Source: Rhizaria sp. SCN 62-66
Taxonomy: Eukaryota
Reading direction: 5' to 3'
Assembly: GCA_001724265.1 (NCBI GenBank)
Contig: MEDY01000135.1
Coordinates: 1-64,000, forward strand
DNA length: 64,000 bases
Below are positions 4,466-63,500 of the stretch, in pieces; position 1 is the stretch's first letter, and each line of letters begins with the position of its first letter. Below the pieces are notes generated by a model that made no database searches, was not told where the DNA came from, and was given only the letters and a program-made list of their open reading frames with translations. Made by a program: the position numbers and the translations under genes.

Positions 4466-7400
4466 ATGAGTGAGCCCGAGGGCGGCGGCGCGGCCGCGCC
4501 CCCCGCACACTCCCAAGAGAAGCTCATGCTTCTCATCACTCGTCTGCGCGAGCGTCTGCAGGAGACCGAGCAGGCCCGCGACGCCGCGCTTGCGGAGAAG
4601 GACACTCTCTCCACGCAGAACGAGAAGTTGATGAAAATTGTTCCCGCAGTCAAGGCCAAGCTTGAGGAGACCCTCGCAGCGAAACAGGCCGCCGACGCCG
4701 CGCGCGCCGACGCCGAGGCCGCCCGCGACGCCGCGCTCGCCTCCGCCGCCGCGCCTGCGGCTGCGCCCGCCGTGGACACTGACGCTCTTGCTGCTGACGC
4801 TCTTGCTGCGGCCCGCGCCGACTGGGAGACCCAGCAGCAGACATTGCTCGCTGCTGCACGCGCTGAGGCCGAGGCCGCCACCGCCGCCGCTGTCGCTGCC
4901 GCCGTTGCAGCCGCTGTCGCCGCCGCCAAGACCGAGGCTGAGGCCGCTGCTGAATCCTAGGCCGCGGCGTGGGGTGCGAAGCTTGCCGCGCAGGTTGAGC
5001 TTATGGAGTCGTTGAAGACGCAGCTATCCGAGCTCGAAAGCTCTATGGCCGCCGCCAAGGCTGCCACCGCCTCCGCCGCCGCCGAGGCCGAGTCCGCGGC
5101 CATGGCCGCCGCTCAAGCCGAGGTCTCCGAGGCGCGCGCCGCGCTGGCTGAGGCCACTGCGGCGCTGTCCGCCGCGCAGGCCGACGCTGCTGAGGCCAAG
5201 GCCGCTGCCGCCGAGGCCAAGGCTGCCTCGGCCGAGGCTGTGGCCGCCGCGAGCGCCGGCCAGGCCGCCAGCTCGGACGCCGCTGCGGCGCTATCTGCGG
5301 CCGCCGCTGAGACTGCGGAGGCCCAGGCCGACGCTGCAGAGGCCCGTGCTGAGGCTGCCGAGGCCGCCGCGGCGCTGACTGAGGCTGAGGCCGCCGCTGC
5401 TGAGGCCAAGGCTGCTGCCAATGACGCCGTTGCTGCCGCCAAGGCTGACACCGAGGTCGCGAAGGCTGCTGCTGACGCCGCAAAGGCCGAGGCTGCTGCT
5501 GCGCGCGACGACGCTTTCCAGGCGCGCGAGGAAGCCGCCGGAGCGCGCGCAAAGGTGACTGCGGCGCTCGCCGAGGCCGACGCGGCGCGCAACGAGGCCG
5601 AGGCCCTCAAGGAAGCCGCCACCGCGCGCGCCGTCGCCGCTGCGGAGGCCGGCGAGGCGGGCGCTGAGGCTACGGCCGCCGCTGAGGCTGAGGCCGCTGC
5701 TGCCAAGGCCGAGGCTGCCGCCGCGAAGGCCGTTGCCGAGGCCGCCAAGGCTGATGTCGCTGCCGCTGAGGAGGACGCCGCGTTTGCCAAGGCGGCCGCT
5801 GCCGCCGCTGAGGCCGCCACCGCTGCCGCTGAGGCCGCTGCCGCTGATGCCAAGGCCGCCGCTGCCGAGTTTGAAGCCAAGGCTGAGGCCGCCGAGTCCA
5901 AGGCGGCTGCCGCCGCGAGCGAGGTTGCTGTCGCCGAGGCCAAGGCCGCCGATGCCGAGGCCAGGACCGCCGATGCCGAGGCCCGCGCCGCCAGCGCCGA
6001 GTGCGAGGCGAGTCTGGCCCGCGAGCAGGCCGCCGCCGCCGCCGCCGCCGCCGCCAATGGTGACTCGACCGCCGCGGAGCTTGTCGCCGCGCAGGCCGAG
6101 GCCGCGGCGGCCCGCAGCGAGGCCGCCGCGGCCAAGGCCGAGACGGAGAGCGCAAAGGCCGACGCCGAGGCCGCCAAGAACGAGGTTCAGAGCGTCAAGG
6201 CTGAGAGCGAGAGTGTCAAGGCTGAGGCTGAGGCCGCGAAGACCAAGGCTGCTGAGGCCGAGGCCAAGGCTGCTGAGGCTGAAGCCAAGGCTGCTGAGGC
6301 TGAAGCCAAGGCTGCCACGACCGAGTCCGAGGCCGCCAGCGCGCGTGCCGCTGTTGCTGCCGCTGAGTTTGCGTCCGCGACCGCCGAGGCCGCCGCTGTC
6401 GCCGCGCAGTCCGAGGCCGAGGCTGCGCGCGCGCAGGCCGCTGCCGCCGCGGCGGCTACTGAGGGCGACGCGTCGGCTGCAGCCGCGCTTGCTGCTGAGG
6501 CTCAGGCTGAGGCTGCGGCCGCCAAGACTGAGGCTGCCGCGGCTAAGTCCGAGGCCGCCGCGGCCAAGGCTGAGGCTGCTGCCGCCAAGGCTGAAGCGGA
6601 TGCTGCTAAGGCCGAGGCTGAGGCTGCCAGTGAGGCTACTGCGGCCGCGACAGCTGCTGCGGAGGCCGAGGCAGCTGATGCCAAGGCTGAGGCTGCCGCT
6701 GCCCGGGACGCCGCTGCCGCCGCCGAAGCCGCCGCTGCCGCTGCCACAGCCGCTGCCACCGCGGCCCAGTCCGAGGCCGACGCTGCGAACGTCCGCGCTG
6801 AGAGGTTCGAGGCCGCCGCTGCGGAGGCACGCGCACAGGCCGCCGCAGCCGCGGAGGCGAGCGGCGACGCGACCGCAGCCGCGCTCGCCGCCGCTGAGGC
6901 ACGCGCTGCTGCTGCGGAGGCCGCGGCCGGGACGGCGGAGGCTACTGCTACACAACTCAAGACTGCTGCTGCGGACGCTAAGGCAGAGGCTGAGGCTGCG
7001 GCCGCAGAGACTGCTGCTGCCAAGGCTGAGGCTGCTGCCGCCAAGGCTAAGGCTGCTGACGCCGAGACCGAGGCTGCTGCCGCGAAGGACGCTGCCGCTG
7101 CCGCGACCGCTGCTGCTGAGGCTGCAAAGGCTACTGCTGCCGCCGCTACGTCTGCGGCCTCTGCGGGCGACAGCGATGGCACCGCCGCGGCCGCAGAGGC
7201 GTCCGAGCGCGCCGAGCGCCTGCAGACGCAGGTGACGGAGACGACTGATAAGCTCAAGAAGGTGTTCGAGATGCTCAAGGCCGAGCGCGCGCGCACAGGG
7301 GAGCTGCAGGCGGACATCGAGACCAAGGCGGCGGCGCTGGCCGAGGCCGACGCGACGATCAAGAAGAAGGACCGCCGGCTGGCGAAGCTGGAGGAGCGCG

Positions 7401-16094: not shown

Positions 16095-18951
16095 ATGTCG
16101 AGTCGTTCAAGCGGGGGCTTCTCGAAGCGCTTTAAGAGAGCTCGTGTCGTCGTGCCCCGCCCGGCCTCGCGCCCCACCAACACATGCGCAATCTCCCGCA
16201 GCGAGGTTGAGCGCGTGGCATCTGTTATTGCTGCCGCAGCCGGCACGCCTGAGCACATCTCCGCGGACTGCGCGCTCGGCAGCCACCTGCTCTCCGCTCT
16301 TTGGGCGCCCCCAGCGAAAGTCAACGTGAGGGACAAGGCTCCGCTCCCCTCTGCAGCCGTGGCCGCCACTACGCCACCAGTCACGCCCCTCGCGAAGTTT
16401 TCGTTGGTTGGCAAAAGCTCGGCGGACCCGGAGCACGTTGAGGCCGCGCGTGCGACGCTGAAGCAGCTGCTGACGACACTCCGCACCCAAGCTCGGCTCA
16501 TCACGAGCAGTACTGCGGCCGCCACCGCCGCGGCTACCGCTTCTGCCGCCGCCGCTACTGCTGCTGCTGCTGCCGCCATCGCGGGGGCTGACGGCGAGGG
16601 CAAGGCTGGCAAGGGCAGTCGCCGCAAGCGCACAGCCCCGTCGAGCTCGAGCTCGAGCTCAAGCGGCGCTGCTGCGGCCGCAACGGCGAGTGCGAGTGCG
16701 GCGGCGGTGGCGCTGTTGCCGGCTGGCGCGGTGGCGACCGTGCTGGCCGTGGCCGCGACCGGCGACGCGGGCGCCCCGCGGCCGCTGATGTGGCTGTGGG
16801 ACACCTTGGCGCTGCGCCTAATGCTGCCGCAGCCAGCCGCGCTGCTCGCAGCCAGCGCGAATGTGAATGACAACAACGGCGCTAACGGCGACAGCAACAC
16901 CCCCGCTGCGGGTAACAACAACGCGGCGCCCCCTGCGAGCGCGGGATCCGCGTCCCCCGTGCGCTGGCGCTGTTTGTTTCTGATTGCTGCCGCCATCGTC
17001 GAGGGCCTCATGCTGGCACAGGTACGAGGCTCACTTTACACTACAACAAAGCCGGTGAATTGTCGATATATTACTTGGTGCATTGTGTATTTTCCTTAAA
17101 ATTACGTTAGCTTTTATGTTTCCAACTCTAATTTATTCTTGTAACACGCTACCTTGTCTTCACATCCCCAGCCCGACAACGCCGACGACACCAACACAAA
17201 TGCTGACGACGAGATTAAACCAGAACCAGAGCCCAACACTCTCCGGTCTGCGGCCCTGACCCTGCCGCCCCTGTCCCGCTCCGCGCTGTCGGCGCTGGTT
17301 CTGTCCGTTGCCGCTGGCGCCCCGTCTGCCGCCGCGGCCGCGGATCCCGGACTGGCCTCGTTCCCCGCCGCCGCCGCCGCGCTGCTGCCGAGCGCAGTAC
17401 TGCGCGCTGCGCGTCTCCTCGAAGCCGTCGCCGCCGCCGCCGCCGCCACTGCGCCCGCCGCGTTTGCGCTCGCGCTCCCGCAACAACTCTCGCAGTCGCT
17501 CTCGCTGCCAGCGGCCGGCGCCGTCAACACCGGCAACGCTGCGGGCTCCGCCGCGGCAGCTGGCTCTCCGGCCGCGGCGAGCTCTGTGGCGACTGCGAGC
17601 GCGACGGAGGTGACGGAGGCGGCGCTGATCGCGCTTGTCGCGGCGGCGAAGCGGGCCGCCGACGATGCCGCGGCCGCGGGCCTCAGCAGCGCTGCGGGCG
17701 TCACGAGCACGGGCCCAGGGCTGGCCGCCGCCGCCGCGACCGCGGTTGCGAGGGCCGCCGCGGACGCTGCGAGTGCGGGGCCGCGCTACACGCTGTCGCT
17801 GTCGACGCCCAAGGCGGCGGGCGGCGCGAATAGCAGCTTTGCTATTGGCAGTAGTCTGGCTGCTGGCGGCGGCTTTGTCCTGAGTAACCTCGCCAGCGCC
17901 AGCGCCAATGCCAGTGCGAGTTCGCACGAGACGTAGCAAAGTGTCGGTGATGCTGAGGACTGGAGCTACGCCGAGTCCAGTGACGGCGCACCAGTGCGCA
18001 ACGCTCTCGGGCCGCTACTGCCTGTACTCGAAGCAGCAGCGACCGGGGCAGTATCGCTGCCAATTGGCGTGAGCTCAAGTACAAACGCGGACGCCGGCCC
18101 TGGCGCTAGCCCTGGCGCGGGCGTTGTTTTAACACCAGTCGCAACCAGTGCTGCCGACATTGCCACTGCTGCTGCCGCAGCTGCAGCTGCTGCCAGCGGA
18201 CGCGCTAATGCCTCCCCTTCTGTCTCAGCGCCAGCGAGCGTGACCAGCGCATCTGTGGTCGTCAGCGGTAGCGGCAGCGCCTGTGCTCTTGCTGTGTCTC
18301 TCGACGACGACGCGTACCGCGCAACCGTCCGCTCCTTGCTCACCGCGCTGACCGCCGCGCCATGGGCCGCGCCGCTCGCGCTCGCGGGCGCCGGCGCCGC
18401 CCCTGTGGGGTACGGCGCGGGGCTGCGGGCGCTGGGTGCGCTGCCGCCGCCGCTGCTGGCGCTGGCGCCGCCCTGGGCGCTCGCGGGCGGCGCGCAGCGG
18501 CGGCGGCTCACGGCGCGGCAGCGCGCGCTGGCTAGGGACGCGGCACGCGCCACGGCCGGCGGCGGCGCGCGCGAGGAGGTGCTTGAGAGCGGCACGGACG
18601 CGCCCGGGAAGCGCTGTCGCAACGCAGCGTGCGGGGCCAAGGGACGCGTCAAGGAGCTGCTCATGGCGACCAGGTACGGAAGATTACTGCATCATGCACT
18701 CTCTTATTATTGCTTTGCTTACATTATATTGAATCTTATGCGTATATTCTAAATTTGATGCGAATACTTGTTTTACAATACTGTGATTCTTTGCTCATCG
18801 AGATATCGAATGTTTCTCATTCTTCTGCTTTGCGCACAGGCGTGGCATCGCCAAGGCCGAGACGTGGGGCGCGCAGGACAGCGAGGGCGACAGCGTGCGC
18901 TTTGCTTGCGCGGCTTGTGGCGAGACTTGGGTCGAGAAGGAAGGCTGGTGA
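16095..18951 (+). CDS. Ala-rich protein with a C-terminal TFIIS-type zinc ribbon, about 846 aa, exons 16095-17021, 17172-18673, 18840-18951, one in-frame TAG at 17934-17936
   Basis: Introns 17022-17171 and 18674-18839 (GTACG..CAG) restore the frame. The spliced C-terminus reads KRCRNAACGAKGRVKELLMATRRGIAKAETWGAQDSEGDSVRFACAACGETWVEKEGW, ending in TGA. Confidence 0.7.
17934..17936 (+). other. in-frame TAG, putative sense codon (SHET*QSVG)
   Basis: ACG TAG CAA AGT GTC; ORFs 17154 and 17994 are in the same frame. Confidence 0.75.
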
Positions 18952-19201
18952 GACTTTGTATTACTCTACAATACTCTTCGTGATGCAGCAACAGACAGTC
19001 AAACGTTATATAGTAAAATAGTTAACATAGAAATTAGTCATGTTGAATACACTTCTGTATTTTTATAGTTGTAATTATAATTAATATGACTGAGCTAATG
19101 AACTCTACAGATCATTTGCCATAAATACGGATGACACACGGCCATCCTGACATAACCATCACTTAACACTCACACCTTGACATACATGACTGCACGTCGT
19201 C

Positions 19202-21630: not shown

Positions 21631-22135
21631 TGCGCTAAATCAAGAGCGTCTATCAAATATAGAGCGTATGAAGCTTGTCAGACGGGAAGGCTGCACACTG
21701 ATAGAGTCAGTATGAAGGTGAATGTTACGCTCCGCGATGAAAGAGACGGGCGAACGGTCTGTGAGTCCGTGGTGAAATCCGGGAGCGTGCAGCGTGAGCA
21801 ATACAACTTGCGTTGACATTTTAAAAACAGAATATACATACAATAGTCTCTTAATGCTATTCAAATCCTCAAAATTAAACTTAACGTCGACGGTGTTGCA
21901 CACGACCTCGATTTTCCAGGCTCACTCTTGGTAGCCGCTCAGCTGCCGCCGTTGACTAGCCTCACCGGTCAAAAGTGGCTGTCACGCGAGCATTTCGAAC
22001 TTAATGCATAGCAAAAGAAAGATAGAGTGACAATGTTTCTCTGCAAATTAGTTCTTAAATATGTATTTACTCAAGAATTTGAAATTTAATCTTCCTAAAA
22101 TCTCTTTATACACAGAAATCTATATAACGTAATCC

Positions 22136-25100
22136 TCACTCGCTGTCATCGAGCATAACAAAGTCATCGTCGTCGACAGCTGTACCACGCGCGCTCTGGC
22201 GCTCTATAGCGTTCGCACCCGCACTCTGGCCCAAGTACATGACCTCAAAGAGCCTCATGCGCTTCTGCTTGTGCGTCAACGCATCATCAGCTGCGTTGCC
22301 ACTCCCAGCTGCGCGCGCATTCGCTTTGTCCTCCTGACTCTGGAGCCGTTGAAGCTCGATCTGCTGTCGCTTAAACGCCTCCCGCTGCTCCAATGCGGCC
22401 CGCGCGGCCTCCGCAGCCTCCTTCTTCTCCTGCGCAGCCTTGTTTCGCGCCGCGTCTTCCTCAACCCTCGCGGCCGCCTTCGCAGCCTGCGCGGCGACCT
22501 CGCCTCGCGCGCGCGCGGCTAACTCCGACGCGCCGTGCCGCCGCCACAGCGCATCGACCGCGGCCGCAGCGGCGCCGGCAACGGGGGCGCCAGTCGCGGG
22601 GCTCGTCGTGATCACGCCCAGCTCCACGCTGCCCGCGCCCATCTCAGCCTCCGTCTCAGCCGCAGCCGCGGCCGCAGCCGACACCGACGCCGACGCCGAC
22701 GCCGAAGCCGACGCCGAAGCCGAAGCCGAAGTAGCGGCTGCGGCCGCTTGCTCCGTTCCTGAATGAGTAAGCGCCGGTGACTGTGTGAGTGAGGCGCGCC
22801 AGCGACGGGTAAGCGCGGTATGGCGCTCGCAGAGCCACTGGAGCTCCCAGTTACCGCCCAGCGCCGCGGGCCCCCTGGGCGGCCGCCACTGCGGCGACGC
22901 GCTGTGCGTCGCGGGCGTGAGTGTGAGCGCGTCGGTCAAACCGTCGTGGTCACGCTCCAGCGCCGCTTCGGCCTCAGCAGCGGCAGAGTCCTCTTCGTCA
23001 GCATCCATGGCGCTGCTTGAGTGGGCAGCGAGTGCTTGCGACGACCTGCTTGTGTGGCCTGCCGAGTTGTCTTTAATGGCATTATGTTTGTTGCTGCTGC
23101 TACCGACATTGGAGTCAACAATTCTGTCGATGTCGTTATCGTTGATGGAGTCAAAAGTACGCACAAATACGGGCACCTCAGGCACTGAGTCGGCATCATC
23201 ACTCTCAGCTGTACTGACAACATTTCGAGCACCGCGCGCCCCCTCGCTCTTGACAGCTGGCCCAGCAGAAGCAGTGATATCGCTGCCGTTGTTGTAGTCT
23301 ACCATGTCAGCGCTGCCGCTCGACTCGTCCTCCGCCGCCGCGTTGAGCCGCAGCCAGGCGCGCCTGGCCCAGGCCCGGACGCCGCGCATGCGCCTGGCGC
23401 TTCCGTCGGCGTAAAACGCCGACGCGCCCGGGTGCGCGCGCACGAGCGAGTCGAGCAGGCTGGCGACGGCGACGGGCACGGGCAGCACCGACAGCGGCAG
23501 CGCCAGCAGCGCGGGGCCCGCCGCGGGGTCCCACGCGCCCGCGCCGGCCCCCGCGGCGCCGCGGTACAGCGCGGTGGCGACTGAGGCTAGCGTGCGCGCC
23601 CAGTCCGCGGGCGCGGGCTGCGCGGAGCAGAGCCCGACGAGGCGGCGCCACGTGAACTCGGGCACCAGCTCCGCGCCGGGGCCTACGCCGCCGTAGCGCT
23701 CGCGCAGCGTCCACGTCGCAGCGCCGCTCGCAGGGCCCGCAGCAACGGCGCCCGCGGTCGTGGCGGGCGTTGCGGCGGCGTAGGGCGACGCAAAGGAGGC
23801 CGAGATGGCTTGGGAGGAGTAGATGGATGTGCCGCAGCTGTTATGCCCTGGGACACGGAGTTGCAACGCGCCAACAGAGCCGATGTTCGCACTCGCAGCG
23901 TTACCAGACCTGTGTCCGTAGAGGCCAGATAACGCCTGGGGATGTGCGTTCGGATGCAACTGGCGCTGCTGCTGCAGAGGATTAGCTCCTGCTGCTGCTC
24001 CGGCAGCGGGTTTGCGCGGCGGCGGCGGAGGCAGGACGTGCCTCACGGATGCAGCGATCGCAGTCAACGGGCCAATGTACCCGGTGTCGCCGCCCCCCAT
24101 GCCACCGGTGCCGAGCGAAACCAGCCCGGCGGCCACGGCGCCCACGCCGTCGTTGGCCTGCCGCGCGGGCAGCTTGAGCGTGAGGCCGCGCAGGGTCTTC
24201 ACGCGGGACAGCGCCACGTACGTCTGCCCGTTCTCAAACACGCGCGTGAGGTCTACGATGGCACGGTCCAGCGTCATGCCCTGCGACTTGTGCACCGTCA
24301 CTGCCCAGGCCAGGATCAGTGGGATCTGCGTGCGCCGCGCAATAACGCGCCGCATGTGCGAGTCGGCGGCCGCGCTGCTGCCGCTGCTGCCGAGGCCGTC
24401 GGCGCCGCTCCCGAGCCCCAGTGCGAGCCCCGCGTCGTCGGGAGGGGCGCGCAGGTCGTCCACGCACGGGGAGCCGCCGCGGGCCACCTCACCGCGCGCC
24501 TTGACGCTGACGCTCGCGCCGGGGGCCGAGAGTGCGAGGATGTCGGGGTCCATGCTCTTGAACCGCGGGTCCGAGCGCGGCACATCGACCTCCCACGCCT
24601 GGGGGTTCATCACGAGCGCAATGTCGCCGCTGAAGCGCACCACGGGCAGCCCGGGCGCGTGCGACACGGCCAGGCAGTGGCGCGTGCACTTGTCGCCGCC
24701 GCTGCTTTCGCCAGTGAGCTCGCTGCAGAAGCACGGCACGTCGCTGTCGACCTCGGCCATCACGGCGGGGTCGCAAGCGAACACGTCGTCGTCGTCCGCG
24801 GCCGTGTGCGCGCCCTCCGCCGCCGCGGCCGCGTCGAGGTCGGCCAGGACGATGGGGCCCTCGCTAGGCAGCAGGCGCAGCGCGGCACGCTCGAGCGCGC
24901 GCGGGAGCTGCCAAAGCGCGTGCCGCAGCCGCCGCAGTGCGGATCGCGGCGTGAGCGCGGCGTCGGCCGCGTCCTCGGTCTCGTCGCAGCTCACGGCGCC
25001 GCCCGCGGCACGCACGCGCGCGCGCGCGGCGACGGTCTGCTCGTCCGCGACGCGGCGCGCAGCGGTGACGGCGGCCGGGGCCAACGCGCGCACCATCGGC

Positions 25101-28100
25101 GCGAGGTCGAGCTAGGGCAGGTACAGCGCCGCGGCCACGGGCGCTGCGCCGCCGGCGGCGCTAGTGCTGCAGTGCGCGGCGAGCACGCGAACGGCGCTGG
25201 CGGCGGCGCGGCGCAGGGCCTCCCAGGCGGCGTTGATCGTGACAGCGGCGCGCACGACTGAGACAACCCAGGCCGCGTTGCTGCTGGCAAAGCCGACGAC
25301 GACACCGCGGGAGCCATTGCACAGGCCCTGTTAAGAGCAAAGATAGAAAACAAAAATAAAATCAGTACATATGAGTTAATAAAAAGCTCGACCTCGAATT
25401 GTTATGTTTAGACAGCATCTTTCTTGTTTTCGCGGTCGCACGTACCAGTCGCAGCGAGAGGTTCTTGACGAGCATGACCTGCGCGCCGGTGACGAGCGTC
25501 AGCTCCGTGGGCGCCGGGCACGCCTGTGCGAGCGCCTTGAGCGCGCTGGCCTCGCCCTTGTCCGTCGCCGAGTACCGCACCTCGCCCGCGCGCGCGGAGT
25601 AGCGCATCACCGGCGGTGCGGGCAACAGCGCGGCTGCGGGCGCTGCCGCCACAGCCGGCGCTGCAGGCGCTGCTGGAGCCTCTTCGACAACTGCAATAGC
25701 TGCTGCAGGCTCGGCTTTGACAGCAGCGGGTCGACCGTAAATGCTGCGATCGCCGCCACCGCCGCCCTGGGACATCGCGAGCTGGCGCGCCGATACAAAT
25801 CCGCCCATGCTCGCCACGCTGTTCGCGCTTACATCGCCAGAGTGCTGCAGCTGCTGCTGTTGCTGCTGCGATGCCGGGGCGGGGCGGTGCCAGGGCCGGT
25901 CGCTGCCCAGCTCCCAGACGCCGAGCCGCTGCAGCGCGCGCCACGGCGGCAGCGGCGCGCAGGCGTCCTGCTCCGCCGCGGCGGCCGCGAGCGACACTTC
26001 GTAAAGCCAGTCCGCAAACGCGGTCTCGAACCGCGCAGTGTCGCTGCTCTCGCTCACGGCGCGGCTCCCGGCGGCGCGTGCGGTCGCGGCGGCCACGGCG
26101 GCGGGCACGGGCGCGCGCGAGAGCACGGCCGTGAGCAGCGAGCGCAGCGCCACTGCCGACGGGTCGCCGGGGACGGCGCCGGCGGCGGCGGAGCTGGAGG
26201 GCGCGAGGCCAGCGGGCACACCGGGCAGCAAGCGCTCGGCCGCGCCGGCCGCGCCGAAGCCCCCTAGCGCGCGCACCGCGGTCGACATCGCGGTTTCTGC
26301 GGCAGATACAGTCACAGTCGCTGCAGCGCCGGGCTCGGGCTTCGCGCTGTGCGTGAGAGCTGGCGCATTCGCGCTTGTGCTCGCGTTGTTGCTGCCCAGG
26401 GACAGCGGCGGCGCGCAGACCGGCAGCATGCGCGAGAACGCGCGCGTATGCTGCGTGAGCGCGGGGTGCAGCGCCTCGAGACGCGCGTTGTTCTCGGCCG
26501 CGACGTCCATGCGCGTGGTGAACAACAGCGTGGGCTCGATTCCGTCCAGCGCCGAGTCCTCTGCGGCGCGCGCGGGGGCGCCCGCGTCCGCGGGCGACGC
26601 GCTCGCAGCGGCCTCGGTCCCCGCGGGCGCGAGCAGGGCGGAAACCTCGGCACTCCTACTACCGCCGCTGCTGTTGTTGCTGCTGCTGCGACAGCGGTTG
26701 CCGCCCGAGGTCAGCGCCAGCGATGCCACGTCCATGAGGTGCAGAACGGCGTCCGCCAGCGCCGCCGCCGTGGGCGCCGCCGTGGTGGCCGTCGCGTCGC
26801 CGCCCGCCGCGGCCGGGCTCGTGGGCGTGCCCGCGCCACCGGCACCGTGGGCTTGGTGCACGGCGGGAGAGCCCAAGAGGAGGAGCACGACGGCGTCGCC
26901 GACCGTGAGCGCGCCGGAGCCCTGGCGAATGCGGCCCAGCATGCTCACGAACGCTGTGTCGCCGGCCTGAGGCGTTGAGATAGACGAGGAAGAAATTGTG
27001 AGGAAAAAAGTGTAAGAGTGAATATGACAGTTGATAGAACTCTTGAATGGTTAGCAATAAAAAATCGATGTGTCGAGTTTTCCTCTTACATACCTGACGG
27101 TATACGTGCGTGAGCAAGTGCCGCGCCGAAGGGGGGATCAGCTCGCTAAAGCTATCTGCAGAGAAGCAAAACTGTGCGCTCGGATGGACTGTGCTCTCGC
27201 GCTCACGGTCACCGGAACTGGAACTCAAGGCACTGGCTGCAGAGCTGTTACTACCTGTGCTACTATAGTTACTGTTACTGATGCTGCTACTGCTGATGTT
27301 ATAGCTTGCCGCAGTGCCATACCGCGGTTGCTGTTGCTGTGGTTGCTGTTGTTGTGGCGGTCGCGACTCTGGCTTCGGCAGCCGAAAGCGCGCAATCGAG
27401 TTCTGCATCGCCGCAGCAGTCGGCTGCGCAATGCTAGAGCTGCTGTTGCCGCTGCCGCGCGTCCGCTGCTGCCATTGACCGTGCTGCCCCGCGCCCATCG
27501 GGACAGCGGCAGGGGCCGGGGACGGCGCGGGCGACTGCGACGGAGCGAGCCAGGGGTTGAAGGACGCGGCGGCGGCAGAAGCAGCCTGCTGCTGCTGCTG
27601 CACGACGCGCGCCTGCTGCTCGGCCCCCGCGTCGGGCACTGGCGGCAGCTGGAGGAAGTCGCCCGTGAGCAACAGCTGCATGCCGCCCCAGGGAGTCGCC
27701 AGCGTCGCAGCGCGCGCGCGCTCCTCCTGCTCCGACAGCTTGCTCCGCGCCTTGTTGCCGCCGCCGCCGCTGCCGCCGCCGGCGTTGCTGCCGCTGCTGC
27801 TGATGCTGCTGAGGCCGGCGCCGAGGCGCGGGCGCGCGGCGCGGGCCTCCCTGCCGACGACGTCGAGCTTGCTCCATAGGTCCGCACTGACCATCGAAGC
27901 CTCGTCGATGACGATCGAATGCGTGTCTCGCCAGCGCACGGCGGCGGCGCTGTCGAGGTTGGCCGTGATGCGGCGCGCAAGCACGTCTGCACCCTCCTTG
28001 GCGAGACCGACGCCCGCGAACGAGTGCAGCGTGAGCCCGCGCAGCGCGACGGCCGCAATGCCCGTCGACGCCGTGATGGCCGCGCTTTCGTCCCGCTGCA

Positions 28101-30189
28101 GCAGCGAGAGCACCACGCGCAGCAGGTGCGACTTGCCCGTGCCGGCGGGGCCCGTGATGAGGACGGAGCGCCGCCGCAGCAGCACGTCGGCCGCCGCCAC
28201 GAGCTGCTGCGGCGCCAGCGTGGCCAGCAGCGCCGCGGCGTCGCGCAGCAGTGGCGGCAGCCGCAGCGGCAGCAGCGCCAGCGCTCGCTTCGGCAGCAGC
28301 GCGGAGCCCACTTCGGGGGCGGCGGCTGCGGTCATAGCGCTGGCGGCGCAGCAGGAGGACGCCCACGAACGGTCACTGTGCTGCTGCGGCGGCTGCTGTG
28401 GCTGCAGCTGCGGCTGTGCGTTCTCGCGCTTGACAGAGATTCGGGCATAGATCGAGCTTGCGCTCGCACTTGTGCTAGAGCTAGAGTTAGAGCTAGGGCT
28501 GACTGATGAGTTATTGTTGATCGTCTCGCCGTTGTCGTTATTGTTCGCTGCAATGGCGCGCAGCTCCGGAGTCATCTCAGTCAAATGGTCCTCCGTGAGC
28601 GCCTGATACAGCGCCCGCTCGCTGTATCCGCAGCCGCAGTCGCAGTCCGCCAGCAGCGGCACACCGGCGTTGGTGACGAAAATGGAGCCCGCGATGTCGA
28701 GCTCGAGGTCAATGTCATGCTTGCCGTCCTCCGCCTTCACAGCCGCGCCGCCGCCGTAGCCGTTGCCGCCGCGCTGGGGAGCCCCGAGTAGCTGCAGCCG
28801 CAGCAACCTCTCCTGCCTCAGACTCTCCTGCCTCACAACATCGCCACGGGCGGCAGTGGCGCTCTCCGCGGGCGGCGTCTGCGTCTGCGTCGCCACGAGC
28901 GCGGCTGCGGTCTCGGTCGCGCGGCGCAGCGCGTGCGGACACCACCCGGCAACGGCCCGCAGCGCGCGCGCACGCCGCCGCAGCGCGGACACCCAGCTGT
29001 ACGCCTCGGCCTGCTCGCGCGCCCGCCTCATCAGTATGGCGCGCGTCTCGCGGTGCGCGGCGCTGGCGCTGGGGTACTTCGCGAGGTCGCGCGCGAGCGC
29101 CACATCGCGGTCGGCGCGGGCGAGGCGCGCCCACTGCAGCGTGGCCGCGTCGTCGGCCAGCGGGTCGTCGCACAGCTCGTCTGCCTCGCGCGCGCCGCGG
29201 AGCGCGGCGGCGGCCGCGGCCGAGTGCGGCGCAAGCGACAGCGCGGAGAGCCACAGGCAGCGCGGGCAGCGCGCGCAGGAGCCGGGCGGCAGCGCGTCCT
29301 CGCGCCACGGGTCCTCCGGCTCCGACGGTGACAGCAATTGCGACTGCGGCGCTGATGCAGACGCTGAAGCTGAGGCTGAAGCTGAGGTTGTTGTTGTCAT
29401 GTTAGCTGTGTACGTTGCTGGTGCGACGGGGACAAGGTCTTCCTCCTGCAGATTGCACAGCTCCAGCGGGTGCTTTTCGGCCAGCGCCAGGAGGATGTGG
29501 CAAATCAGCGCCGCGCTCGCCCGCGTCGCGCGGTTCCTAAAAAAGCGGTCCAGCGCCTCGGCGGGGACGCGCGGCAGCGCGGGCGGGCACTGCGGGGCCT
29601 GCGCAAGGGGCAACAGGCGAGGGGCAGCGGCGGCCGCAGTGGACGCGGGCGCGGTGGGCGCGGGGACAGCAGAGGATGCGTCGGACATCAGCATTGGTGC
29701 CGCTGGTGGTACTGCGGGCGTGATGCTTGCGGCAACAGCGGCCGCGGTCGGGGTAACAGGCGCGGCCACAAGAGGAATAGCTTGTTGTGTTAGCTGCTGA
29801 TGCGGTTGCCGCTCTTGTTTGGGGACAACAGACTCGACTGCCAGGAGAAGAAGTTGCTGATGCTGCTCCTGCTATTGCGCTTGTTGCTGTTGGTGCTAAT
29901 ACGACTGACTGGTGTTGGAGAGGGACGCGCAAAGCTCAAACGCCTCAAGCGGCGGCGGGCTGTCGTCCTCGCCACCAAAAAATCTCTCGGTGCAGCTCAA
30001 AGCCTGGCTGTACGTCAGCGCGACAGCAGAAGTGTTAACGCTGTCTAAGTCGTTGTCGCAACCACTGCTGGCCCCGGAAGACAGGAGCGCAAAATCGAAC
30101 GCGTACAACTCAGCGTCTGTCATCCCAACGGCGCCGTGTGAGGGGTCTGCGCTAGCAGAATGCCCGCAGGGCCGGGCTGAGTCACTCAT
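22136..30189 (-). CDS. PIF1: Pif1-family 5'-3' DNA helicase expanded to about 2600 aa, exons 30189-27094, 26966-25446, 25327-22136, three in-frame TAGs (29898-29896, 29874-29872, 25114-25112)
   Basis: [10 protein letters not shown] (I), TASTGIAA (Ia), [18 protein letters not shown] (II), GDFLQLPPV (III), [23 protein letters not shown] (IV), [10 protein letters not shown]..|[31 protein letters not shown] (V), GQTYVALSR (VI). Ends in TGA. The exact start codon is less certain. Confidence 0.92.
25112..25114 (-). other. in-frame TAG between the Pif1 GLCNGSRG element and helicase motifs V/VI (LYLP*LDLAP)
   Basis: Exactly 71 codons after the exon start at 25327 and in frame with the 25096-22136 ORF. 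Confidence 0.85.
29872..29898 (-). other. two in-frame TAG codons embedded in a poly-Gln tract (SQSY*HQQQQAQ*QEQHQQ)
   Basis: Minus strand reads TAT TAG CAC CAA CAG CAA CAA GCG CAA TAG CAG GAG CAG CAT CAG CAA and continues in frame into the 29769 ORF. Confidence 0.8.
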
Positions 30190-30651
30190 GCTAAGAACCG
30201 TTGTCGATCGGAAGTCGCAGAGGACTGGAACGGCGAAGGAAGGTGTCAGTGGTCTTTCTTCGCTCGACGATGAAAAATATTAGTTCAAGAAACACAAATT
30301 TGAGAGAATAAACCTGGATAAAATTATCATGCGGGACTAGTTGTATATATGTTACAGACGGAGAAATCAGTGCGAACTCCTACATTTTAACTACGCCTTT
30401 GAAGCGTTGACTCGGCGGGCAGATGGCGCGATCTCGGATCGCACTATATTTTGTCATGCAGCGTCATTTATACCGAATTTCTGCAAAATATTGCACTTTT
30501 TCTGTCTTTTTTGAACTTACCCCTTTACCCTCTTCAAATATCATCTCCACACCTCTTTTTTATTCACCTCTTTGTCACAGAAAACCTCCCCCAGTTTCGC
30601 ACTCCCACTTTCTCGTGCGGGTCCGTTCCTCTGGCTCGTGCTCCCGCGCGT

Positions 30652-35524: not shown

Positions 35525-36066
35525 GATTGCTGGACGATATGAGGTGTTGTTCTTGCTCTACACTTTATTTATTCGTGTGACTGCACTTATTTGTTATTTT
35601 CACCAAGATTAAACTTAGTTTAGTGATACATAGACTTACTTTTGCACAGGACATCTGATGAGCACATCACATGTATCTCATACTTTCACCAGAATACAGA
35701 TGACAATCGAGAGCATACTCGATAACCACCAGTTGTAAAGACGGCAATGGCTTGATAGCTGTAAGAGAACGTTGGGAGCAAGATGGAACAATGGGTTTGA
35801 CCATGATGAGTGCTTTTTTTAAAGTTGCCATAGCGTGGCGTACACAACTACTGGTGGCCCCGCTGGCAGACCCCAAGCGGTCAGATCGCATGGGCCTGTC
35901 CTGCTTTCAATCTTCCGACAGTAAACAAATAGCCTGTGATTTCGAATGAACTCTTCTTGTTTGTTTTATTTTCATTTTTCGAATTTGGCCTCACTTGACT
36001 ATCCCTGACATACGCTCTCCAGAACACCGACCGTTTCTACAGCTGCGACTCTTTTCCGGCGTCAAC

Positions 36067-39000
36067 ATGAACCCCACGCCGGGCTCCAGTCGCTCTCTGG
36101 CGTCGCACCAGTCGTCAAACGACGTGATTGCGACCTCACAAAGCACCTCATATCTCAACTCCCTTCGCGCAAGCGGTCTCGCCAGCGCCAGCACCCAGCA
36201 GCTCGGCGCCGCGCCCCGTCACGGCTCGGCGGCCAACGTCAACTCCGCGGGCGCTGCTGTGGCCCACGGCCCGCGCGCCGGCCCCATCGCGCCGAACTCC
36301 ACGCTTACCTCGGCCTCGTCCATCTCCTCCCTGGGCCGCGTTGTGCCTGTGTCCCCTGCCCCGCGGCAGCAGCCGCCGCTGCCGTCGCCGTCGTCCCTCC
36401 ACAACGTGACGCTCCACCAACGCAACCACTCGTACTCTCTGTCGCACTCGCACTCGCCCTCCGCGTCGCCCGCGGGCGCGGGCGCGTCCTACGGCCCTGC
36501 CGCACCCGCCGCGTACGGCTTGCCGCCCTCCCGCAGTCCTGTGGCGTCGGACTCATCGGCCGGCGCTGCCGTGCGCTTTGCTGGTGTTGTTGACACAGGT
36601 GCCGCCGGAACAGGTGCTGGCGCTGGCGCTGATTTTGTTCCTCTTTACGGCGCTGCGTCGCACGCCTCGCTTGGCCTCCCAGCCGCTCACAGTGTGGCGA
36701 ACCTCTACAGCAGCCCCGCCCCTCACGGCAACGACAACACGGGCGACGACCACGACGGCGACAACGCCAGTGTCAACAGCATCAACAGCGTGCGCGGCGC
36801 CTCCGCCGCCGCGCCCCCGCTGGCGGCCGTCTCGTCCACTGCGGCGCTTGCGGCGGCGGCGGACGCGCGCACCGCGATGTTGGCCTCGCTGGGTGACGCG
36901 TCCTCCGCGTTCGTGACGCAGCTGGCCTCGCTTGACGCGGCCGACGCGGCCGCGGAGGAGGCTGCGGCGGCCGTGGCGGCCAGCTAGGTCGCTGCGCTGT
37001 CGCAGTCGCCATCCCGCCACTCGCTGGCCGGGTCTGCACTGAGCGGCTATAGCGATGGCACGGCGCTGGCCACCGCGGCCGCGCTGCTCCATGCCGCGCC
37101 CGCGGACGGCGGCGCGCGCGCGCGCGACGACCTGCTCGACCTCGCGGCGCTTAACGCCGCCGCGCTGGCCACCGACACCGCGCTGCTCTCCCCTCCGCCG
37201 CCGCCGCAGTGGCGTCACCAGCAGCAGAATGACTCGGAGCTTGACTCCGCGCTGCTGCTACCCGGGTCCGAGCAGGAGGCGCAGGCCGCCGACGCCGCGC
37301 TCGACGCCGCACTCGTGGCCGCGCTCGCGGCGCCGCTGCCGCTGCCGCACGCGCACCTCGCGCTTGCGCTCGACAGCGGCGCGCTGAGCGCGGTCGGCGG
37401 CGGTGCGGGGGCCGTCACGCGCGCCGAGCACGAGGCCGCGGCGCGCGCGCTGTGCGACCGGTACACACGCGCGGTGACCGGCGCGATGCAGGCGACGCTG
37501 ACGGCGCGGCTGCGCACGGTGGCCGCCGCCGAGGCCGCACCCGTGGCTGAGGCCAAGCGCCGCGTGCAGGAGCTGCTGCGGTACTACCATAATAACGAGG
37601 CGGGGATCGCCGAGGCGTGCCAGCAGCTGCGCGAGGCCGACGTGGTGCTGGCGTATCTGCGGGAGGAAAACGCCGGGCTGCGCAGGGTCAGGGACAAGCA
37701 CCGCGCGCGCATTGCCGCGACCGCCAAGGCCAACGCGGCGGCGGCGGCAGCGGCCGCGGCGGCGGATGCGGCGGCGGCGGCGGAGGAAGCCGCCGCGTTT
37801 GAGGAGACGAGGAATGCAACGCGTCGCAACTACAACTGCAACAACAATAGTACGAGCGATAACACCGCTGGCAACGGCGGCGACGACGACGGCGACAACG
37901 ACGATGACGTCGGCATGAGTGACACGCTCGCGTCATCGCTATCAAGCAACCCCATCGACGCCGCCCTTTCGGCGCGCCTCAACAACCGCAACGACTCGAA
38001 CGGCAAGCCCGGTCTCGCGGCGAGCGGGCACCCCCGCAACGGCGGCGCCAACGGCGGCACGACGAGTAGCGACGGCATCCGCGGCGCAACGGTGGCGCAG
38101 CTGCGCTCGGAGGCCGCGCAGCTCAAGGCCGCGCTGGCGCGCAAAGTGGCGCAGCACAAGGAGCGGCGCATGCTCGTCGCACAGCGGCGCCAGGAGCTGG
38201 CTGAGACCAAGCTCGCGGTGGAAAACGCCAAGGTGGAGGCGCGCGCGCAGCTGCGCGAGTCGCTCGAGGCCATCGCGGACCGCGCGCGCGACACACAGCT
38301 GGCGCGCGAGGAGCGGCGGCGCGAGGTCGCGGCCGCGCGCGGCGCCGAGCGCGAGCTCAAGCAGCGGCGCGCGGCGCTGACGGAGCAGCTGCTCGACATG
38401 GGCGCGCTCGAGACGAAGCTACGCGGCATGGAGGCCACCAAGCAGGCTGAGGCCAAGGAGCTGGCCGCGCGCCGGCTGCGGCTGCGGCAGGTCGCCGAGC
38501 ACTCGCTGCGGGCCACCGAGGACGCCTACATCGCGGCCTGCCGCGCGCGCGCCGACACAGTCGAGGCGGCGCTCAAGGCGTTCGCGCGCGTCAGCGAGGC
38601 GCTGCGGCGCGCGACGGCGTGCGCGGTGTGCGCCAAGCCGATGACGGAGCCCTGCGTGGTGGTCGAGACGGGCGAAGGGTGCTGCCGCGCGTGCGCGCCG
38701 AAGTATTCGAAGCGCGACGCGCTGCAGCGGCTGCGCGACGACGCGCGCGCGCTCGCCGCGCTGGGCGTCGTGCTGCCACAGGGCCCGCCACCGGAGGAGC
38801 CGTGGGTTGAGCTCTATCTGCGCCAGGACCCGCCGGCCTCGATCGTCAACAGCAGCAACAACGAAGCTGACGGCGGCGAGCAGTGGGTGCCGTATGTGCC
38901 CGAGCTGCAGCGCGACCCCGTGACGGGCGAGTTCCAGACGCGGTTCGCGCTCTACGACGCGCAGCTGCAGGACATGATGATGCACTGCCAGCTTACGCCC

Positions 39001-54538: not shown

Positions 54539-57500
54539 ATGTTGCGTTGCTTTCGCTTCTTGTCAGCGCATCTACCGATGCTGCTATTGCTGCTGTCTTC
54601 GCTGTCCATTTTTCTGCTCCAAGTCTCAGCGTCATCGAATTTCTTTTTTCCGTCCACCAGCAACTCTCGCGGTGCCAATGTGTTCGTGCACTTCGTTCTT
54701 GATGGCCCGCACTCCGTCAACGTGGCCACCACTATCTTTCTGTCGACGCTCTCGCCCACGTCCTCGATCCTGTTCGCGGAATTCAGTGGTGGTCTTTCAA
54801 ACTGTTTTTTTCATGACATTACGTCGGCGTCGACCCTGTCTGCGATCTCTTACGCTGCGTCCACGTACACCTTCACCGTCACACACACCGCCGACTCGTC
54901 CTTGGCTAAGCTCGTCATCTGCTCTGTGCTGGTGGCCGACGCTGCGGATGTCAATGCGAACAGCACTGCGACAGCGAGCTTTGTTACAGACACTGTGGTA
55001 GTAGCCACGGCCTCAATCTACATTGCCGCGTCGTTTCTCACTCCAACACTGTCGATGTGGCGTAACAGCGACCAATTCGTACAGTCGCGCCAGAGCACGC
55101 CGGTGTACATCTACAACACTTTCACCACGCCAGTGGTTTTGGGCAGCGAGGCTGGTAAGTCTACGGCGTTTATGACTATTAAGGTTGCTTGGGCATCTGA
55201 GCTAATGACCTGTTCCATGGTCTTCGAGGGCGGACTTGCGGCAACGGTCGCTGCTCCAACCGTCTCAGGCACTGTTGCGACGTACGCCGTCACGTTCCCG
55301 ACGCAGATGCGCGAGACCACCGAGTTCGAGCTCCGATGTCTTGCATATTGGCGCTCTTCCAATGAGTCTGTTTTCTCCGGAGTCAGTATCGATGTTGCAC
55401 TTATCTTCCCGTCTGGATTCACGCTCACCAAAAGCCCAAGCTATTTCTACTCCATCGAGTCGACAATGAACAAGACCTTGATCCCTATTGCTAGCACCAG
55501 TGATGGCGAGTGGGTTCCCGCACTCTCTGGCTCGTCGCACGTGCTCGGCCTTGCGGGTAACGTCGCTGCGGCGAACAAAAGCGGTACTTTTTATTTTGCT
55601 ATGAAATCCCCCGTTGGGGCAGAGGTCTACCGCGGCGCGCCGGGTTCATACTGTTTCCTCTTCGCAACACCGCTTAAGGACGACTTCACGGGTCCCGCTG
55701 TGTCACACTCACCCCACACACGCGTTAATAGTCTCACGTATGGCTCTGAGGGATGCACGTTCAGTGTTGCGCAAATGACTATCACAGGCACTGTGTCGGC
55801 GGCGCAAACGTCGCTCCAAGTGACTATGGGCATTGTTCTTATGGATCCCCCCCTTTCGCTCACCAACAATGTCCCGCAGTCCTCTGTGACGTTCACCAGT
55901 ATCCAAAACGTGTACCGTGGTGTGCCAACTGTTCTTGGCCTTTCGCCACTCTTTCAGACCGCGCCGACATACGTTACCACGTTCACGCCGGCCGGCCTAT
56001 TTGTTCCGCCGCGCTCCTTTACCGTTACCGTGGGGTCTGAAACTCTTCTGTACCCGGACGACTGGGGCCGGCAAATGCAGAACGCACCCGTGACCTACCG
56101 CTCCAACATCACTAGCCCTCGCCTTTACACGCGTCCCCGGGCTCGCTACTTGCACGCGCAGACTACCAACGCGGCCTCTGCGCCGGTGCTTGGCCGGCTG
56201 TCACCCGCGACGTCCGGCCAGCTCACGTTCTGGTTTGGCGGCATCGCGTTTGAGAAGGCCGAAGACGTGGCGACATCGATCAGCACAATTCGACCCATTC
56301 TTGCCGACCTGTGGATGTTTGACGCGCTTGGTAACACAACGACGCTGCTGTCAGGCGACCCGTCGCAAACGCGCTCCTCAGCGCGGTTGTATAATAACGG
56401 ATAGTTCGTTCCCGTTGCCGGCGATTACCACCCAGATCTTCACCCCGCGGCGCGGCACTCGGCGTCGCTCGCTTTCGACGCCGCGCTCGAAGTGCTTTGG
56501 CTCTACGGCGGCGCCGAGGGACTTATGGGCAACACCACGTCCGACACGCCTATTGCGCAGCAACGCTTCTTTGATGATCTGTGGTCCTATAACCTCAAGA
56601 CCAACATGTGGGCGTGGTGGCGCGGCAGCGTGGTCCCGTTGTATCGTGCGCAGAATGCGACTTTATTCGGCTCGCTCCCGCCGCTCGCCGGCGCCGGTGC
56701 TGCAGCGCACGATGGCGTGTTGTTGATCTACGGCGGCCTGGTTATGAGCGCGGCCAACGCGCCTGAAGGGCGCAAACTGCCGTACTTTGAGCTTGACGCG
56801 ATGATGATGTTCAACTCCTCCGATGGGAGTATCACGCGCTTGGCTGGTGGTAGCAATGGTTACGACTTCACATTCAACGGCGGGACTCCCTTCGTTGGCG
56901 CCGCGACAAGCCCGCCTGCGGCAGCGTATCCGACGCTAGTGTGGAACACGCACGCCGCCACTGGAACGAGCGATGTGTACATGTACGGCGGTGTGCTTGC
57001 GCCCAGTCAAGCCGGATTCAGCTACTTATCGCTCGACCTGGCCAACTCGCTCAACCCGCACTCTGACTCGAGCGTTCTTACCGGCCTCTGGCGTTTCTCA
57101 GTTTTGTCTAAGATCTGGACTCGTCTCGACGCGCCCACTGTGGCCATGTCGGCTAACCGCGGCCACCCGCGTATTGCGGAGCCGTTGCAGTCGGGCTTCC
57201 TCTCGCACCCCGGCGGACGCGTGTTTGCGGCGATGAACATTGCGCCCAACGGTGATGTGTATCTCTACGGGGGTCGTGGTCACTCGAGTGGGTTTATTAT
57301 TACACCTAGCGGGTACGGCATCAGCAATGCGACTGTGCAGACGCTGACGAGTGTGCCTGCGCTTTCACCATTTACTTACCCGCTGTCGAGTCGGTTTGTT
57401 AATGGCGCCGATTCAAACGCAGTGACATTGTACGCGTTTGTCTACTCGGCCAGCGAGCTTCAGAATTCTGGCGTCAGTGTCAATGTGCCGCTTAACGACT

Positions 57501-60500: not shown

Positions 60501-63500
60501 GCATAAATGACTTGAATCTCGCCACTGACGCAGCTATTGCTGTTGTTCACAATGCCCCCGAGTTCATGTCACTCTCGCTTGGTGCAGAGATTAACAGTAC
60601 TGTGATCTTCGTTGCCGGTGGCTCTACTGAACCCAGCAGCTGGGTTACTTCGGATGTGCTCACAGCAGTACTTGTCACGTCACGCACCACAGTCAAAGTC
60701 CACCCTCCAACGAGTAACAACAGCACTAAGGCGATCTACTCGGGCCCCAACACGTACATCGGCCGCCACATCGGTGCCACACTTGTCTACTCACGCTCTT
60801 CGGGAATGCTGTTTCTCTACGGCGGGCTTCATTTTGACCCCACAGGCACGCGGCGTAACCTATACGAGCGCCACTGGCTCATCACGCCTGGCGCCATGGG
60901 AACAGTGCGGCTGCCTCAGATCCTCACGCTCGAGTCACGCCGGGACGTGGTTCAGATCAGGTACAAGCTGGACACCCCCTCACAGGTCACGAGTGTGGAT
61001 CAATCGGGCCTCACGTTTCACAGTCGCTCCGACCTCTCTGTTTACCCTGTAGGCACCCCCGGCGCGCGTGCGTACCACTCTGCCGCCGCGGTAACGATCG
61101 GTGAAGTCGAGTGGATTTACATGTTCGGTGGCGCAGTAATCAACTCAGGCGACACTGACGTCGAGTATCTCTCTGACTTGTGGCGTCACCGCGCGCTTGC
61201 CTCGGGCACTGTGCAGTGGGAGTACGTTGGCTGCTCTCTCGACACCGGATACTTACCTCCGGCCAACATCACGATAGGCGCTTCGCTTGATATCAAGGAT
61301 GGGTGCCCGATGGCGCGCTCGCACACCCAGCTCGTCGCTGTTGGCAACACGCTCTGGCTTGTCGGCGGCCGCGGTGTGCGCGGCGGGTACGATGACGTGT
61401 GGTCGTTCAACACGGAGACGGAGGTCTTCACACTCCGCTCAGGCCTCGCTCTCAAACCTCTTCCCGCAACGTCGTCGAAACATCTCATCAGTGCTTTCAC
61501 GGGCGATGTGGCGACTACGACCATGGGTTCTCGGTACGCACACCGTTGTGACGTGCTGCCGACGGGTACTTCCGTGTACTGCTACGGCGGTTTGACTGCA
61601 CATGGTGTGGCGGCTGATATGTACCGCCGTATTTTGCCGATTAATCTTGCCAAGCATGTTCATTACATTGGCATGAACGATGTGGTTAATCCCTTCACTC
61701 TTACGAGGTCGGGTCTCTTCGTCGCGTTGCTCCCAGTGGCGCACCTTGATGCACCAGGTCTGACGACGCAGAAGCAGACGATTTATGGCGTGACTTTTTT
61801 TCTGGCTGACGATTATGACATGACGAGCGATGCAATGACCGAGCTCGTGTTATCCATCGGCTATCTTGCAGCCGCGCCCACAGATGAACCGAAGGATATT
61901 GACGTGCCGCTGTCAAAGACGACACACTTGATCAAGGCATCAACATTCACCAACCCGCGCACATTTCAGTTCAGCTTACAAGCACCGGTCGAGCGGACGG
62001 CGTCGTCTCAGTATCTTGTGATCCGAATGAGTCTGTCAGTCACTAGGCCAACAAGGATCGATACACGGTTTGCGTTTGGTTCCACTGCAACAATAATTAG
62101 TCAAGTTCCCAACACCACAAACGATTATTTCACAACCTACAACAATTCGCGCACCAAGACGTGCTTTTTCTTCAACAAGGACTACAGCTAGACGTATGAG
62201 ACAACTATAATCCCACAGATTAGGCTACAAATGCAGCCACCTGCTGAGCAGCAGGGCCACACGACTGTTGCTGAGCTCATCAAAATCGACACGACATCCG
62301 GGCTTATTTCCCAGGTCTTTGGACCCTCAACGCAGGGCAGTGTGCCGCTGTCTTTGTCCAAGGCGAGCATCTTTGCGCGCCCCACTGACGTGCCGAACCT
62401 TCCCGACTCCGTGCTGGAGCCGCTCGATGGCGGTGTGGCCGTTGCAGCTGGTATTTTAACAACCGACTTCTATGCATCGTCAAAGTTTGTACGGCCGTGG
62501 ACAGTACCGGCGGCTGCGCTGCCTGTGTTTGCGATGTTGCCACTTGGAAAACCCACTCTTGATCTCATTCCTTCGTTCATTGTGTCGTCGGGCATGTGGC
62601 GAATGGAGACAGCGCTGTCAGGCACGACGTGGTCTGGTTCTCACATCATGCTCAGCCGCTCGTCGCCGATTACGCAGAGCAACCAAGTCTTTTCCGCGCA
62701 AGGCATGAACACAATTTTTGGAGGCGTGCGCCCTGCGTACTACACTAACACTGTCCCTGAATCGCCTTATCCTGTTGTGACTGCAGCGACCTTTGCTGCG
62801 ACAATGACGAGCGTTGAGCTTCTTTTCACCACAACCACGCAGCAACCGCGCTACAGCACATCAGCGTCGGCTGAAAACTGTGCTCTAATGTTTCCCGCCG
62901 CGAACCTTGCACACTTCGGCAGCGGATATACATGTGCGTGGTTAACTCCCTCTGCGTTAAGTATCACACTTGGCGCATCTTTTACTCTGCGCCCCGACGA
63001 CACGTTAACTGTACTCGGTGATGTCATCCGTAGCGGCAGTACACTTGCTGAGGGACAGACCCCGCTGTATCTGCCCGAGACTGACTTGCTCGTTATAACT
63101 GCGACTACTCCTGTAGTGCCGACTGTTGCACTCACAGGCTACAATACGGTCGGACCCTGCGAGGGGCTTACGCTCAGTTCCGCTGGCAGTGTTCACGCCG
63201 GTGGCCTTGCCTTTGAGTATGCTTGGAGCATTACTGGCACGGCGGCGCAGCAAGACAAGCTCGCCGCCATCGTGAGTGCGGCGTACGGTTCCCGTAATAG
63301 CAGTATCCCGTTTACTGCAACTACGTCACCGCTCTATGCGCCCACGGTTACTGTGCCCGTGGGCGCGATGGTGGAGCTGTTTGGCGCCACAGGGGAGGAG
63401 ACTACAACGGCGACGTTCACGCTGCAACTCACCACGTGGTTTGGAAAAACTTCTACAACAAGCTTCTCAGTTTCTCGTGCAGCGTCGATGTTACCTCAAA

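Follow-up and report, generated by a model that had tools for sequence, protein, structure and literature searches.

UAG as a probable sense codon, possibly for glutamine, in the Pif1-like helicase gene and other genes of a GC-rich uncultured eukaryote

Changes of the nuclear genetic code are rare, and those in which UAG and UAA differ in meaning amount to a handful among the cases described in two published accounts (PMC5304391, PMC11687900). UAG alone has become a glutamine codon, with UAA kept as a stop (the type of NCBI translation table 15), in Iotanema spirale, Protocruzia tuzeti, and two phyllopharyngean ciliate lineages; the same source places UAG-only changes to leucine in an uncultured rhizarian and some ciliates, and to serine in the green alga Scotinosphaera (PMC11687900). 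Both UAR codons are given as glutamine (NCBI table 6) in ciliates, diplomonads, oxymonads, ulvophytes, and the aphelid Amoeboaphelidium, and where these accounts describe a nuclear UAG that has changed its meaning, glutamine is the most frequent result (PMC5304391, PMC11687900). Here we consider the first 64,000 nucleotides of contig MEDY01000135.1 (assembly GCA_001724265.1, Rhizaria sp. SCN 62-66), referred to below as the window, in which a Pif1-like helicase gene on the minus strand has two TAG triplets in a glutamine-rich tract. UAG is very probably decoded as an amino acid in this DNA, with UAA and UGA serving as terminators.

The support for UAG as a sense codon comes mainly from sites other than that tract. 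Eight isolated in-frame TAGs lie in sense frames, at 4958, 17934, 25112, 29872, 29896, 36985, 56402, and 62189. On both strands together the window holds 646 TAG trinucleotides, the rarest of the three, 748 TAA, and 1669 TGA; TGA is 2.6 times commoner than TAG, yet all eight interruptions are TAG. Long frames that are split under the standard code become joined when TAG is read through: where a single stop separates two open frames, each 200 codons long or more, it is TAG in seven of eight cases (some of these in antisense frames), TGA in one, and TAA in none. TAA was not seen in-frame in coding frames, which is partly by construction, the frames having been delimited by TAA and TGA.

The terminators show the complementary pattern, with TGA at ten, TAA at six, and TAG at none of 16 gene ends, a small sample from one 64-kb window; were TAG the terminator of 20% or 30% of genes, a sample without it would have a probability of 0.028 or 0.003, respectively. 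The TGA at 7669 was left out of this count. Here, a coiled-coil open reading frame (ORF) from 4466 to 7669 (plus strand) precedes a GRIP-domain ORF (7719-9179); the two are probably one golgin-like gene (4466-9179) joined by an intron, in which case the TGA would be no true terminator.

Base composition and codon usage distinguish the TAGs from stops in the same way. The guanine-plus-cytosine (GC) fraction falls to 0.29-0.52 in the 150 nucleotides past the 16 real stops, while past the eight TAGs it is 0.52-0.81, approximately equal to that before them. A codon model trained on 7213 codons from TAG-free genes, all without an in-frame stop, gives strong coding scores on both sides of an isolated stop in sense frames for TAG only (4958, 36985, 56402, and 62189); TAA sites with strong scores on both sides are all in introns. 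The TAG at 4958..4960 (plus strand), codon 165 of the golgin-like gene counted from ATG 4466, has 60.5 bits upstream and 89.1 bits downstream, and the TAG at 36985..36987 (plus strand), in a 1007-codon gene, has 98.0 and 53.9 bits. The weakest of the eight is at 17934..17936 (plus strand), in a low-complexity ORF, where sequence and GC provide the evidence. An earlier note on this DNA, made from its letters, had pointed to TAG CAA at this site and to GGA TAG TTC at 56402, and both are present.

At 56402, 62189, and 25112 the evidence comes from homology. The first two of these TAGs lie in a giant kelch protein (54539-64000, plus strand; more than 3150 codons, >3154) that runs off the window. 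A search with its residues 251-1450 against 1.84 billion representative proteins gave 42 matches, two of which come from the window itself, as fragments of 621 and 1888 amino acids truncated at the TAGs. Six metagenomic homologues (P0004-P0008 and P0011; 38-44% identity) align unbroken through the TAG at 56402..56404 (plus strand), which is flanked by the invariant blocks LLSDLWMFDVLGNTTTLL upstream and RPAARHSAALAYD..LWLYGGA downstream. The TAG at 62189..62191 (plus strand) is crossed by the alignment to P0005, with 33% identity over 600 residues. The ends of fragmentary kelch homologues lie in variable loops or intron-like tails and are indistinguishable from contig ends. Among genome contigs, the scans gave either nothing or kelch proteins that were all bacterial, with 24-34% identity, and a scan of viral contigs gave no match. 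The kelch protein appears by eye to start with a hydrophobic, signal-peptide-like stretch, and contains many kelch blades together with Cys-rich EGF-like stretches; its relatives are metagenomic proteins only (35-44% identity), one of them 4671 amino acids long.

The TAG at 25112..25114 (minus strand) lies in the third exon of the Pif1-like gene, between conserved helicase motifs. Both of its flanks align to the metagenomic orthologues P0165 and P0166, while at the TAG itself the insertions of the orthologues do not align. If this TAG were a stop, the last helicase motifs would be lost. The earlier note had assigned UAG to glutamine; the sense half of that claim is well supported, given the homology at these three sites, the absence of TAG from the 16 terminators, and the composition, whereas glutamine itself is not shown by them.

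The reading that we prefer, with a probability of about 0.6, is that UAG is a sense codon, that the tract TAGs are within a Pif1 gene starting at ATG 30189 or 30123, and that the residue is glutamine. Several observations weigh against it, and they are given in this and the following paragraphs next to the alternatives that they would favor. By analogy with other variant codes, UAG would be read by a dedicated tRNA with the anticodon CUA, and the release factor eRF1 would no longer recognize UAG; for glutamine, a tRNA with the CUA anticodon would be one base change away from tRNA-Gln(CUG). No tRNA gene was found in the window by ARAGORN, so the CUA decoder is unseen; no eRF1 or other release-factor family is among the Pfam matches of the scanned window ORFs, and an Rfam scan of the window gave zero matches. 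UAG is also very rare, at 8 of 15,064 codons (about 0.05%), and absent from the conserved genes for PGI, HSP70, and BCKDK, as would fit inefficient read-through.

UAG might, then, be a leaky stop in a transitional state, read by near-cognate tRNAs without a dedicated tRNA(CUA). Near-cognate read-through in other eukaryotes inserts mostly Gln, Tyr, or Lys, and the contexts partly agree: C comes next after four of the eight TAGs, and in three cases the next codon is CAA, CAC, or CAG, which resembles known leaky contexts. After the kelch TAGs, however, the next base is T or A rather than C; the Pif1 gene has three TAGs and the kelch gene two, so that losses from partial read-through would compound in both proteins; and TAG terminates none of the 16 genes. 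We regard this explanation as improbable, and prefer a UAG that is regularly decoded.

The tract itself spans 16 codons at 29854..29901 (minus strand) and reads Y X H Q Q Q Q A Q X Q E Q H Q Q, X being TAG. Its first TAG (29896..29898) is codon 98 and its second (29872..29874) codon 106, counted from ATG 30189. The codon string given by the earlier note from 29901 down to 29854, with TAGs at 29898-29896 and 29874-29872, was confirmed letter for letter, and both TAGs are in phase with the open frame 26659..30279, where the Pif1 helicase motifs lie. The letters are the same in further records, although one among these may share its data with the source of the window: L001, a JGI metagenome contig of 1177 nucleotides covering the tract, is 100% identical over its whole length, and record 5 of X3 (27839-31243) and record 14 of X4 (29603-31196) span the tract with zero differences. 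The metagenome scan for DNA of relatives returned only L001, which, being identical, offers no variation to read.

Because other records carry identical tract letters, the tract TAGs are no assembly error. More generally, the explanation of the eight TAGs by sequencing or assembly errors, or of the genes as pseudogenes, has a single point in its favor, namely that the records are metagenomic assemblies. It is hardly credible in view of the three further records identical at the tract, of interruptions that are TAG in eight cases out of eight despite the higher frequency of TGA, and of flanking frames that retain homology and codon bias.

The two tract TAGs probably belong to the Pif1 coding sequence. 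Upstream of the tract, the Pif1 frame is open back to 30279 and has ATGs at 30189 and 30123. Near 30240 the GC fraction climbs from about 0.35 to about 0.6, and stays at 0.55-0.64 onward. Between ATG 30189 and the first TAG lie 97 codons, whose coding score is +40 bits when they are read in the Pif1 frame, −60 and −87 bits in the other two frames of the strand, and at most 11 bits antisense. When the score was calibrated by leaving out one gene at a time, its median was 51 bits (5th percentile 17 bits) for in-frame coding windows and −42 bits for intergenic ones; of 270 intergenic windows, only two score as high as the stretch upstream of the tract. Within the same 97 codons there are no stops in the Pif1 frame, versus five and six in the other two. 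The 100 nucleotides before ATG 30189 have a GC fraction of 0.49, similar to other starts (0.44-0.61), and those before ATG 29694 have 0.64.

Other results favor an alternative in which Pif1 starts downstream, at ATG 29694 or 29688, with the tract TAGs outside it and the 97-codon frame being an upstream ORF that ends at the first TAG, or a coding-like leader. From the second TAG to ATG 29694, a stretch of 58 codons, the coding score is neutral (−2.5 bits), and two TAGs eight codons apart are readily given by non-coding sequence. No homologue of the Pif1 N-terminus was found at E <= 0.001 among 8000 candidates, in a search that did not return the gene's own ORF either and was probably swamped by low-complexity words. 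The RNA data favor neither reading: in contigs of the polyA-RNA run X5, the mean word depth in the bin 29674-30340 is 0.23, with no listed piece over a TAG; this belongs to a comparison of four runs over 17001-37000, all of them as Logan contigs, which cannot show transcript ends. No listed RNA joint is present at either Pif1 intron in the X5 contigs.

Still, a downstream start is unlikely. It would have to account for a score of +40 bits exactly in the Pif1 frame and for GC that is already high from 30240, where the value before ATG 29694 exceeds that at other starts; it would also leave TAG as a terminator, which it is in none of the 16 genes, and Pif1 must read the TAG at 25112 in any case to have its last helicase motifs. 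A candidate intron that would remove the tract (GTATTA at 29902 to AAG at 29781, 122 nucleotides) was rejected, as it shifts the frame, has about 52% GC versus the AT-rich verified introns, and is without a GTAYG 5' site. The 97 upstream codons, coding-like in the same frame, thus make improbable the proviso of the earlier note, that Pif1 may start downstream and the two TAGs be non-coding, and a Pif1 start at ATG 30189 or 30123 is preferred.

As to the amino acid, the odds for glutamine are slightly better than even. Glutamine occurs within two codons of three of the eight TAGs (37.5%), which matches the share for true glutamine codons (37.4%) and compares with 11.2% for all residues among the 15,064 codons counted. 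If the residue is glutamine, the step from CAG to TAG in the tract would be a silent transition. In a likelihood calculation based on neighbor composition, glutamine fits best over all eight TAGs, by about 2 bits. This signal depends on one tract, and the window alone hardly discriminates between residues: the enrichment of glutamine neighbors has P=0.051, and P=0.18 with the tract counted once, while in the likelihood ranking glutamine falls to 17th place without one tract TAG and to 19th of 20 without both.

Homologous columns do not point to glutamine either. At the TAG at 56402 the homologues have S, E, T, or gaps, and at 62189 the lone aligned relative, P0005, has K; Q is never seen. Among the alignable sites, no TAG is in any conserved alignment column. 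The kelch columns are too variable, and therefore argue for no residue. The comparison made in the earlier note between G*F at 56402 and GQY in another linker of the same protein suffers from the same variability: the 'GSYGQYNYSYHPD' stretch is present in the kelch protein, but it is a single weak paralogous match.

A different residue at UAG (Leu, Ser, Glu, Tyr, or another) is accordingly a possibility to which we give some, though clearly lesser, weight. The tract TAGs would then be ordinary substitutions in a tolerant low-complexity region, and the tract does accept CAC, CAT, GCG, and GAG besides CAA and CAG. A Ser codon directly precedes three of the eight TAGs, and UAG-only changes to Leu and Ser are among the cases given in PMC11687900. 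The best fit over all eight sites and the share of glutamine neighbors, on the other hand, speak for glutamine, which is also the commonest known outcome in the accounts cited above (PMC5304391, PMC11687900).

The Pif1-like gene as a whole occupies 22136-30189 (minus strand) and can be spliced from three exons that join in phase 0 throughout, to give 2603 codons with three TAGs and a TGA stop. Its most likely start is the ATG at 30187..30189 ('MSDSARP'), indicated by the GC rise, the coding score, and the frame without stops; the second in-frame ATG, read from the sequence, is at 30121..30123. Exon 1 (27094..30189) matches PF05970 (PIF1; E 9.8e-26) and has the Walker motifs. It is followed by intron A (26967..27093; 127 nucleotides, AT-rich, GTATGT..CAG, phase 0), then by exon 2 (25446..26966), which ends in the start of a 2B domain (PF21530; E 1.5e-4, 21.8 bits, under the 23.9-bit cut-off), and by intron B (25328..25445; 118 nucleotides, GTACGT..AACAG, phase 0). 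Exon 3 (22136..25327) follows from the spliced frame and the orthologue alignment, and ends with the TGA at 22138-22136. Judged by its predicted PIF1 domain, Walker A and B motifs, 2B domain, and C-terminal motifs, the product is a Pif1-family helicase.

The gene is unusually long, with large low-complexity insertions rich in A, Q, and S. One insertion of approximately 200 residues is inside the 2B domain, just before the PVVRF block; P0165 and P0166 carry insertions of about 300-350 residues at the same 2B site, which are not alignable. Two differences between records were seen in exon 2, namely T>C at 25750, found in contigs of the RNA run X5 and of X4 and absent in X3, and C>T at 25760, found in one X5 contig. 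These are strain variation or noise, and neither is at a TAG.

The window is best explained as nuclear DNA of a GC-rich uncultured eukaryote with few introns. Its overall GC content is approximately 63% (0.53-0.72 in 2-kb bins), with 60-80% in exons, about 30-50% in intergenic regions, and visibly AT-rich introns; alanine accounts for 20% of all residues in the 15,064 codons. Eukaryotic genes found here encode PGI, a DnaK-type HSP70, a BCKDK/PDK-type kinase, MPP6, the GRIP-domain protein, and an RRM protein, in addition to the Pif1-like helicase and the kelch-repeat protein at the window end. Where homology makes introns visible, there are 0-2 per gene; they are 118-127 nucleotides long, AT-rich, GT..AG, with CTAAC- or TTAAC-like motifs. 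The same DNA was found in bioreactor, wastewater, and activated-sludge metagenomes, and close relatives of the window proteins are metagenomic proteins only.

The closest PDB entries to PGI are 7e77, the wheat cytosolic enzyme, followed by 3ujh, named 'ToPGIc' in PMC9436075. The DnaK-type HSP70 (19202-21482, minus strand) is highly divergent: one metagenomic relative is 71% identical, all remaining listed matches have at most 53% identity, and the named ones are all bacterial DnaK. Such divergence suggests that the lineage evolves fast or is deep, or that this HSP70 is a specialized paralogue. Two ORFs on the plus strand, 16038-17099 and 17145-18752, are in one frame with two TAA between them (17097 and 17142), and are probably a single gene with an in-frame intron; nowhere else in the window are strand and coding status as uncertain as in this low-complexity region (16038-18752).

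Standard gene callers cut the proteins of this organism at every TAG, as seen for the kelch protein, stored as pieces of 621 and 1888 amino acids, so that public metagenome catalogues annotate its genes wrongly. Keyword searches of the open-access literature found no report matching the organism, which is no proof of its being unpublished. We see an even chance that the window represents an independent, so far unreported UAG-only reassignment, perhaps at an early stage of codon capture, with a residue that might not be glutamine, in an undescribed lineage represented only in metagenomes of wastewater and bioreactors. The early stage is suggested by the fact that this GC-rich genome uses UAG very seldom. 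A GC-rich case outside the AT-rich ciliates, with UAG at about 0.05%, would bear on the route of capture, that is, on codon disappearance and GC pressure versus an ambiguous intermediate; if the residue is not glutamine, the code would be rarer still.

Comparison with known systems starts from programmed UAG read-through, which occurs in leaky contexts such as UAG-CAR-YYA. The CAA, CAC, or CAG codon after three of the eight TAGs is similar, but the window differs in having up to three TAGs per gene, deep within ORFs, and in that TAG is no normal terminator. Instead of a single leaky stop at the ORF end with a short extension, the TAGs lie from 72 to about 2550 codons into their frames and are followed by 270-1928 coding codons. 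With the codes in which both UAR codons mean glutamine, the window shares the change of UAG from stop to sense, often in Q-rich regions; unlike them, it uses TAA as a working terminator, at 6 of 16 gene ends.

The UAG-only codes are closer. Those with leucine or serine show the same codon-level pattern as the window, UAG being sense and UAA a stop, and for these residues the window provides only hints, through the non-Q residues in variable columns and the three TAGs following Ser. The type of table 15 likewise resembles the window in that UAG is decoupled from UAA, with in-frame UAG in the genes and UAA and UGA as the sole terminators seen. The window differs from the ciliates with that code in its GC content of about 63% (up to 80% in exons), its AT-rich introns of 118-127 nucleotides, and its UAG frequency of 0.05%, while glutamine as the residue is here favored just above even odds; this composition and these introns are presumably unlike those of a ciliate macronucleus. 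The pattern in the window matches an established type of nuclear code, with UAG reassigned and UAA left as a stop.

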